Shown in pieces: positions 55,969-56,169 of a stretch of 64,000 nucleotides of DNA. Each line of letters begins with the position of its first letter. Positions within the stretch are counted from its first letter, which is position 1. The DNA comes from an uncultured Spirochaetaceae bacterium (GTDB lineage: Bacteria > Spirochaetota > Spirochaetia > DSM-27196 > PWMO01), in NCBI GenBank assembly GCA_964635245.1, contig CAZWNS010000001.1:9248-73247 (forward strand). Reading direction: 5' to 3'. The notes beneath the pieces were generated by a model. It saw nothing but the letters and a program-made list of their open reading frames with translations, made no database searches and had not been told where the DNA came from. A program made the translations under genes and the position numbers.

Positions 55969-55969
55969 A

Positions 55970-56041
55970 ATGGGCGCCGCTAGCGGCGCCGTGCGCGGCG
56001 CGATGAACGCGACAACACACGGGAGCATTATCATTCCATAG
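55970..56041 (+). promoter_or_regulatory. candidate leader-peptide ORF MGAASGAVRGAMNATTHGSIIIP* (three consecutive Ile codons)
   Basis: ATG 55970 lies 1 nt after the ilvN stop. The last codons are ATT ATC ATT CCA TAG, at 56027-56041. It is immediately followed by hairpins and a terminator. Confidence 0.4.
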
Positions 56042-56077
56042 GGATGCCGCCGCCGAGGCGCGGTGAGCATCCCAGGG

Positions 56078-56116
56078 CCGGGTTTGCAGAGTGTTCACTC
56101 TCGACCCGGTTTTTTT
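56078..56116 (+). terminator. intrinsic terminator/attenuator upstream of cimA
   Basis: CCGGGT-TTGC-AGAGTG-TT-CACTCT-CG-ACCCGG followed by TTTTTTT (56110-56116). Confidence 0.6.
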
Positions 56117-56169
56117 GTGCCCGGGCGGATAGTCCGGGGACGGGAACAGGCGATATCACGGAGGAGACA

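Follow-up and report, generated by a model that had tools for sequence, protein, structure and literature searches.

In a 64,000-nt stretch of DNA (64 kb; hereafter the window) from a Spirochaetaceae metagenome-assembled genome (MAG), the genes ilvB and ilvN are followed by a 201-nt spacer and by cimA, and this spacer carries a short leader open reading frame (ORF) that ends in isoleucine (Ile) codons, a hairpin (H3) and a terminator hairpin (H4). The intergenic element is most likely an Ile sensor deciding whether transcription proceeds into cimA. Judged from sequence and its conservation, the interpretation as an internal gate of the ilvBN-cimA operon, acting as an Ile-responsive leader-peptide attenuator, is well supported, and we consider it rather probable that this attenuator is a ribosome-mediated, transcriptional one that controls cimA separately from ilvBN and works without a competing antiterminator helix. 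Citramalate synthase, the product of cimA, catalyses the first step of the pyruvate route to isoleucine and serves this branch only, while ilvBN are needed for valine and leucine synthesis as well; an internal gate at this position would therefore be sensible.

An earlier note on this DNA had proposed a candidate Ile attenuator composed of the small ORF, three consecutive Ile codons, two hairpins and a U7 tract. All of these parts are present (Table 1), and matches to NCBIfam models upheld the assignments of ilvN and cimA. The spacer folds with a z-score of -3.4 relative to dinucleotide shuffles, and a custom scan of both strands revealed that H4 with its U7 tract is the only hairpin in the window that is followed by at least six U residues. 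The Ile run at 56027 is likewise the sole run of three ATH codons within a small intergenic ORF of the window: three other such runs lie inside large genes and a fourth in an off-frame 28-codon ORF opposite a minus-strand gene. In ilvB, ilvN and cimA, ATT is a minority codon (10 of 68 Ile codons), compared with two out of three in the leader.

Protein searches and contig look-ups yielded six relatives (L081, L082 and L084-L087) with 82-88% identical CimA proteins, which together with the window form the set of seven sequences referred to below. The order ilvB-ilvN-spacer-cimA is kept in 6/6 relatives, with spacers of 173-245 nt. The first and last parts of the spacers are not alignable; between them lies a conserved core of about 100 nt, consisting of RCGRRA, AUY AUY AUU, NNN, UAG followed directly by GGAUGC...GCAUCCC, RGRR, CCGGGU...ACCCGG, U6-7 and GUGCC. 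In 7/7 sequences the Ile codons stand in the frame of an ORF that begins at the ilvN stop or close to it; this frame is free of in-frame stops in all seven, although openness by itself is weak evidence in GC-rich DNA. The N-terminal parts of the encoded peptides vary freely, the conserved C-terminus being [G/E][S/I]III-X-stop. Three to four consecutive Ile codons occur in 7/7 sequences, with only third-position T/C changes within them; at the fourth, most upstream position AGC is found in three sequences (window, L081, L082) and ATC or ATT in the remaining ones (the IIII sequences). The codon before the stop is variable (CCA, CCG, GGG, GCG or AGG), the UAG itself invariant (7/7).

The geometry of the core is also constrained. 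Counted from the first base of the last Ile codon, the base of H3 is 8 nt away in all seven sequences, and H3 and H4 are always separated by four purines (AGGG, AGAA, AGAG, GGAA or AGGA); variable are the distances from the ilvN stop to the leader stop (44-98 nt) and from the U-run to cimA (19-111 nt). When two more distant loci, L088 and L090, were added to the seven spirochaete sequences, compensatory changes were found in 12 of the 28 pairs of H3 and H4; pairs changed on both sides number four in helix 1 (H3) and eight in helix 2 (H4). In these nine sequences 94% of the H3/H4 cells are paired, compared with 37-52% with slid partners. The small ORF, the Ile run and the stems are thus kept in the relatives, and this conservation in 7/7 spirochaete sequences backs the core of the earlier proposal, namely a translatable Ile-rich leader ORF directly before a terminator that gates cimA.

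The same alignment bears on a simpler explanation, in which H4 is a constitutively leaky intra-operon terminator that fixes the ilvBN:cimA ratio, and the small ORF serves merely to take over ribosomes from ilvN and let them go, without any sensing by the Ile run. Partial internal terminators are common in operons, and the failure to demonstrate an antiterminator helix (see below) fits such an arrangement. A mere release ORF would leave it unexplained why exactly the Ile codons are kept, with synonymous changes, in a peptide that is otherwise free to vary, why the spacings from the Ile codons to H3 and from H3 to H4 are fixed, and why unrelated lineages also have Ile or Thr/Ile runs at this place in front of cimA or leuD-cimA. 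We hence regard this explanation as improbable.

Transcription of cimA appears to depend on passage through H4. In line with the earlier note, which had seen no promoter between terminator and cimA, a consensus scan detected no sigma-70-like promoter in the ilvN-cimA spacer. In L081 and L082 the Shine-Dalgarno (SD) sequence and ATG of cimA follow within 20 nt of the U-run; therefore no promoter fits there and cimA is transcribed by read-through. An additional hairpin past the terminator (56120-56138) probably lies outside the switch, because it is not conserved and is absent from L081 and L082, where cimA directly follows the U-run.

Table 1 Features of the ilvN-cimA element, leader ORFs of close relatives, related modules in other lineages and flanking genes. 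Positions without a locus prefix are those of the window.
Feature	Position	Strand	Remarks
Leader ORF	55970-56041	+	23 codons, MGAASGAVRGAMNATTHGSIIIP, stop; ATG 1 nt past the ilvN TAG
Sensor codons AUU AUC AUU (Ile-Ile-Ile)	56027-56035	+	Supported by alignments of relatives
Spacer codon CCA and stop UAG (56039-56041)	56036-56041	+	G of UAG is the first base of H3
Hairpin H3 (GGGAUGC...GCAUCCC)	56041-56073	+	-23.8 kcal/mol; outer 7 bp invariant, inner stem covaries
H3-H4 linker AGGG	56074-56077	+	4 nt, purines only; base-pairing with the U-run's first residues is possible
Terminator hairpin H4	56078-56109	+	-15.6 kcal/mol; outer CCGGGU/ACCCGG invariant, inner stem covaries
U7 tract (56110-56116), then mostly conserved GUGCC	56110-56121	+	Sequence, alignment and hairpin scan
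Extra hairpin CCCGGGC GGAUA GUCCGGG	56120-56138	+	Past the terminator; from a fold of the window sequence
L081 leader ORF			MKKRILVNGSIIIP, stop; own SD-like motif
L082 leader ORF			MNTGLHDSAYRIAGELATTGSIIIP, stop; own SD-like motif
L084 leader ORF			MTFAGTVHSEIIIIG, stop; start overlaps ilvN stop (ATGA or TTGA)
L085 leader ORF			MKYPTYVMNGIIIIA, stop; start overlaps ilvN stop (ATGA or TTGA)
L086 leader ORF			LSSPTATLARNVQNEIIIIG, stop; start overlaps ilvN stop (ATGA or TTGA)
L087 leader ORF			LSSTTTFVHTVQSEIIIIR, stop; start overlaps ilvN stop (ATGA or TTGA)
LeuC end ...QDTITIT, stop	L088:2279-2370		UAG, H3, 1-3 nt, CCGGGCC...GCCCGG, UUUUGUUUU
LeuC end ...DSKIIIR, stop	L090:2266-2359		H3 from +5, 4-nt linker, terminator
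LeuC end ...PETITIS, stop	L092:2270-2388		UAG, H3, 2-5 nt, unrelated terminator AAACGAGCGUG...CACGCUCGUUU
LeuC end ...QQEITIR, stop	L093:2310-2418		Followed by hairpins, no U-run
LeuC end ...QTITVGG, stop	L094:2120-2394		Long structured spacer
Leader before leuD-cimA	L091:813-940		MARFTVGAAQPIIIIIIS, stop; six Ile codons; AUG overlaps UAA of upstream gene (UAAUG)
LeuD end ...QQQAIIIS, stop	L003:2893-3000		Anaerolineales MAG; just before cimA
Stand-alone leader before cimA (Chloroflexota)	L013:2840-3000		MLNVSMSITAIIIIG, stop; ends IIIIG
Stand-alone leader before cimA (Chloroflexota)	L036:2780-3000		...SIIIIGQG, stop
ilvB	53682-55403	+	NCBIfam TIGR00118, 732 bits
ilvN	55420-55968	+	NCBIfam NF008864, 198 bits; stop TAG 55966-55968
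cimA Shine-Dalgarno GGAGGAG	56160-56166	+	ATG at 56170; 56169 is the last spacer base
cimA coding sequence	56170-57849	+	TIGR00977 citramalate synthase, 692 bits; downstream of the terminator

According to the mechanism that we propose, ribosomes coming off ilvN would translate the leader ORF. By analogy with known attenuators and from the physiology of the pathway, a scarcity of charged tRNA-Ile would stall such ribosomes on the Ile codons and lead to more read-through into cimA. That the leader has no obvious SD sequence had been raised as a caveat, which is eased by the relatives, four of which have a leader start overlapping the ilvN stop and two an SD-like motif of their own. Within the window, initiation at a second in-frame ATG (56003) would shorten the leader to 12 codons. 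A perfect 7-bp GC hairpin (GGCGCCG CUAG CGGCGCC), located at 55973-55990 and thus 3 nt after the first leader ATG, is not conserved in relatives; it may favour the second ATG (56003) or make initiation dependent on ribosomes arriving from ilvN.

For the readout of the ribosome position, the classical solution would be a competing helix. As envisaged in the earlier note, stalling on the Ile codons would open H3 on its 5' side, and the freed GCAUCCC would pair with GGGUUUGC in the 5' arm of H4 and block this terminator. The two mutually exclusive pairings that had been drawn by hand do exist in the window sequence, but neither is conserved in the relatives: CAUUCC:GGGAUG is confined to the three sequences with III-P, and the UGC half of GCAUCCC:GGGUUUGC is variable. 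When the outer 5' arm of H3 was masked and the 3' arm of H4 left untranscribed, RNAfold produced a short CCC:GGG-centred helix, which is the pairing drawn in the note, in 5/7 sequences. The most stable constrained helix between the 3' arm of H3 and the 5' arm of H4 amounts to -5.8 to -10.5 kcal/mol, which falls somewhat short of the roughly -12 kcal/mol of the 2:3 helix in the E. coli trp leader, and hand analysis of two more distant cimA leaders (L013 and L036) found strong 2:3 pairings of 10-12 bp at the corresponding place. Against these points in favour of a competing helix stands the outcome of several comparisons. Cognate pairings (-7.8 kcal/mol) are no better than non-cognate chimeras (-8.1 kcal/mol), and a fraction of 0.47-0.97 of composition-matched shuffles is at least as stable as the cognate pairing, several sequences being weaker than their shuffles. 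The flanking pairs shift register between subgroups and UUUGC is not conserved. We further folded the seven sequences up to the U-run with ribosome masks whose leading edges, numbered from the U of UAG, ran from -3 to +15. H4 was kept in the minimum-energy fold under nearly every mask. L092 shares the layout with essentially no such complementarity. Lastly, when the last Ile codon occupies the A site, the ribosome would not cover all of GGGAUGC, as had been assumed, but reach only about 4-5 nt into H3, freeing AUCCC at most. The proposed antiterminator is hence at chance level, not conserved and unable to displace H4 in constrained folds; if anything, H3 and H4 avoid each other. We judge a classical competing helix to be unlikely, and if the element is regulatory, the ribosome position must be read out in another way.

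Three further interactions were considered and rejected. Kissing of the H3 loop with the H4 3' arm (CGAG:CUCG) was seen by eye in the window and L081 and is missing from L082 and L084. Between the 5' arm of H3 and the 3' arm of H4, again by eye, only GGG:CCC can pair, with an A-A mismatch that is invariant. Some folds contain a long-range helix that joins the region just preceding the Ile codons to GUGCC after the U-run, but it would form past the termination point and is inconsistent across sequences.

A readout based on proximity alone might instead suffice, with H3 as a tether. In E. coli, a stop codon located only a few bp upstream of the tR2 terminator represses it almost completely, and maximum termination is regained beyond about 30 bp (Li et al. 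2016, PMC4824070); the ribosome protects roughly 10-12 nt downstream (as summarised in PMC4824070). The linear distance from leader stop to H4 is 36 nt, too far for a block of this kind, known from pyrBI, for which ribosome and terminator stem should be no more than about 15-20 nt apart. With these E. coli footprints, a ribosome with an Ile codon in the A site would abut H3 or open its first few pairs, so that H3 stays folded. The folded hairpin would loop out 33 nt and leave an RNA path of only about 12-21 nt (8-17 nt plus the 4-nt linker) between the stalled A site and H4's first base, thereby blocking the terminator. When Ile is plentiful, the ribosome would move on, unzip H3, opening its entire 7-bp outer stem with UAG in the A site, halt there with 36 nt of unfolded RNA before H4 and be released, allowing termination; the terminator would work as well if the leader is not translated at all. 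Such a model accounts for the fixed spacings, the short linker, the position of the stop at the hairpin base and the missing complementarity between H3 and H4. We put it forward tentatively, as a possibility that falls somewhat short of even chances.

Several points weigh against the attenuator as proposed here, in particular against its tether. For a stall at the first Ile codon, the distance to the terminator would be about 21 nt, at the margin of the range in which repression has been reported, and the invariant sequence of the H3 outer stem is unexplained by a tether. The true leader start in the window is uncertain, given the strong hairpin at 55973-55990 after the ATG at 55970 and the minimal AGG upstream of it. 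Coupled transcription and translation in this spirochaete is an assumption of the model, the seven close sequences are phylogenetically narrow, and leader translation, termination at H4 and the response to isoleucine are all predictions from nucleotide sequence. We also know of no precedent for a tether shortened by a hairpin.

The invariant outer stem would be accommodated if the folded H3 itself acted as antiterminator. Lying only 4 nt before the terminator stem, it might work by steric exclusion in the RNA exit channel, or else act on RNA polymerase in the way of put RNA. A ribosome at UAG would then open H3 and permit termination, while an upstream stall or the lack of a ribosome would result in read-through. 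The scheme agrees with the position of the H3 base, which just meets the front of a ribosome that has stalled on the last Ile codon, as 7-9 bp would be opened only with UAG in the A site; invariance of the stem suggests sequence-specific recognition, and the logic requires exactly the observed absence of complementarity between the H3 3' arm and H4. The scheme would, on the other hand, make read-through constitutive in the absence of translation, which is the reverse of how all known amino-acid attenuators behave; no such mechanism is documented for a plain hairpin beside a terminator, and the H3 sequence is different in L088, L090 and L092. On balance, we find a direct antiterminating role of H3 implausible.

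H3 is accompanied by a sequence that is reminiscent of a transcriptional pause site: 10-12 nt past its base, U-rich GGGUUU followed by G is found within 56074-56086, which partly matches the G-10/Y-1/G+1 pattern of elemental pauses (Y-1/G+1 in 5/7 sequences). H3 could have a second role as pause hairpin and keep RNA polymerase in step with the ribosome.

Control could also be exerted after transcription, if stalling on the Ile codons remodelled the read-through mRNA and exposed the cimA ribosome-binding site (RBS) or stabilised the message, in the manner of erm/cat or mycobacterial poly-Cys leaders. For short Cys-rich ORFs of mycobacteria, a post-transcriptional mechanism of this type is documented (bioRxiv 10.1101/834739). 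One fold of the window sequence indeed pairs the Ile-codon region with the SD and AUG of cimA. This pairing is lost in the fold of a slightly longer segment and in the relatives, pairing probabilities leave the cimA SD mostly unpaired in 7/7 sequences, and the conserved strong terminator would be left unexplained. We consequently dismissed RBS sequestration by the Ile-codon region, seen in that single fold and not conserved, and regard post-transcriptional control in general as very improbable. Also rejected were entry into the cimA frame by a -1 frameshift on the Ile codons and re-initiation at the invariant AUG within H3 (56044), as the frame reaches cimA in the window only; in the relatives, the frame of this AUG spans 7-159 codons and is out of frame with cimA.

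Beyond the close set, searches with a covariance model (R1) and codon scans brought up similar modules ahead of cimA or leuD-cimA in other lineages. The succession of codon run, stop, H3, short linker and terminator recurs before leuD-cimA in the Chloroflexota-like loci L088, L090 and L092. In these loci and in L093 and L094, all ordered leuA-leuC-spacer-leuD-cimA, LeuC has an Ile- or Thr/Ile-rich C-terminal tail, and the sensor codons appear to belong to the enzyme gene itself. Tandem non-overlapping hairpins with a very short linker are thereby combined with at least two unrelated terminator sequences. Other loci come closer to textbook attenuators. L091 appears to possess a conventional antiterminator and terminator, as predicted from its sequence, and L003 a candidate 12-bp antiterminator (CCGGAAUUCAGG with CCUGGAUUUCGG) that overlaps a terminator (UUGCCGAAAUC...GAUUUCGGCAA, then UUUUCU). 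The leaders of L013 and L036 are followed by three or four GC-rich hairpins that exclude one another (2:3 pairings of 10 and 12 bp) but by no U-run, and these leaders may control translation rather than termination. Given these related modules in other lineages, predicted sensing of Ile or of Thr plus Ile before cimA is recurrent. It is possible, though on the doubtful side, that the spirochaete element represents an undescribed class of amino-acid attenuators without antiterminator helix, in which the hairpin between sensor codons and terminator serves as a collapsible spacer and the sensor may be coupled to an upstream enzyme gene (ilvN) or be the C-terminal tail of LeuC or LeuD in Chloroflexota-like relatives. 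Standard leader-peptide searches would miss such intercistronic sensing by codon runs in enzyme tails.

Compared with the leader-peptide attenuators of enterobacteria (trp, thr, leu, ilvGMEDA, ilvBN, his and pheA), the spirochaete element shares a short ORF with a run of end-product codons, an intrinsic terminator and a biosynthetic gene behind it, as well as the expected logic of starvation, stalling and read-through. The thr leader mixes Thr and Ile codons, much like the LeuC tails TITIT (L088) and TITIS (L092). In contrast to the enterobacterial systems, the element does not lie in a 5' leader directly after the operon promoter but between two genes of the operon, ilvN and cimA, and its ORF would be fed by ribosomes from the upstream gene. 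Its control codons are located wholly 5' of the first hairpin, one codon before the stop, and its two hairpins are non-overlapping, with no antiterminator helix above chance. An Rfam search (cmscan) of 53000-58000 with E-values up to 10 returned four chance matches to unrelated families and neither a T-box nor a leader family. In kind, the element is a ribosome-mediated amino-acid attenuator that lacks two classical features, the antiterminator helix and the 5'-leader location.

An intergenic leader peptide with attenuator inside an operon, following an upstream gene, has a counterpart in the trpL attenuator between trpR and trpB of Chlamydia, which differs in its Trp codons, its 59-aa leader and its pathway, and for which coupling to the upstream stop is not reported; trpL is itself a prediction (Merino and Yanofsky, as reviewed in PMC3937554). 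The pyrBI attenuator and the ribosome-distance effect (PMC4824070) resemble the tether model in that a close ribosome physically prevents the terminator hairpin without any antiterminator helix. Unlike here, the pyrBI ORF runs up to or into the terminator, whereas proximity would be reached only via the folded H3 in our case, and its signal is UTP-dependent pausing instead of the proposed tRNA charging. Outside enterobacteria, ribosome-mediated attenuation of branched-chain amino acid (BCAA) biosynthesis involves leader ORFs in Gram-positive bacteria, namely S. aureus ilv (PMC5794164), Listeria Rli60 (PMC5864092) and the upstream ORF of Corynebacterium ilvB (PMC10272879). These are 5' leaders of ilv operons with mixtures of Leu, Val and Ile codons, none of them intercistronic or directed at cimA. 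T-box riboswitches likewise provide amino-acid-specific read-through at terminators before BCAA genes (ilv-leu) in many Bacillota; they sense the tRNA directly without translation. The literature searched, in which most subscription journals are not covered, contained nothing specific on a leader peptide or attenuator of cimA or citramalate synthesis, so that an earlier mention in a comparative-genomics study is possible. If our interpretation is correct, this would be the first described leader-peptide control of citramalate synthase, and the placement of the sensor inside the operon would allow regulation of the isoleucine-only step apart from ilvBN.

Upstream of ilvB (53500-53681), an AT-rich promoter-like stretch with TATAAT and TTGACT motifs was found, and reading of this sequence gave no leader peptide or attenuator before ilvB, only a mini-ORF without BCAA codons. 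On the 5' side of the AT-rich stretch, the same interval holds a terminator-like hairpin of the preceding gene (CCGCCAUACCGGCGG, then GUUUUCC). At the other end, an MltF-like gene on the minus strand (57813-59255) is convergent with cimA and closes the unit at 57813; the 3' ends of the two genes share 37 nt (57813-57849), with no terminator between them. The CimA protein of the window is 100% identical to a protein titled 'MAG: citramalate synthase [Spirochaetaceae bacterium]'. A contig scan with CimA as query gave a best match of 71% identity and thus no close relative, and a metagenome pattern scan for TAGGGATGC..AGCATCCCNGNNCCGGGT had 0 matches, although two known members stem from JGI samples; the collection scanned lacks this clade.

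Two matches of model R1 were discarded. One, in L080 (3213-3316), falls on the N-terminus of a longer hydrophobic ORF without leader; the other, a weak match (E = 0.33) at 61420-61515 of the window, corresponds to an unrelated terminator-like hairpin after a gene of the flagellar rod-binding type. This hairpin, at 61440-61515, reads GAGCCCGGG...CCCGGGCUC, then UUCGUGUAUU.

Annotation of the locus is prone to a particular error. The cimA frame is open for 126 nt 5' of the true start, back to the AUG at 56044 inside H3, and ORF lists accordingly give a 601-aa product (56044-57849) that spans both hairpins as well as the U-run. Gene callers could adopt this artefact, extending cimA through the terminator and ignoring the leader ORF. 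In L081, the gene caller placed the cimA start at an AUG 4 nt past the U-run.

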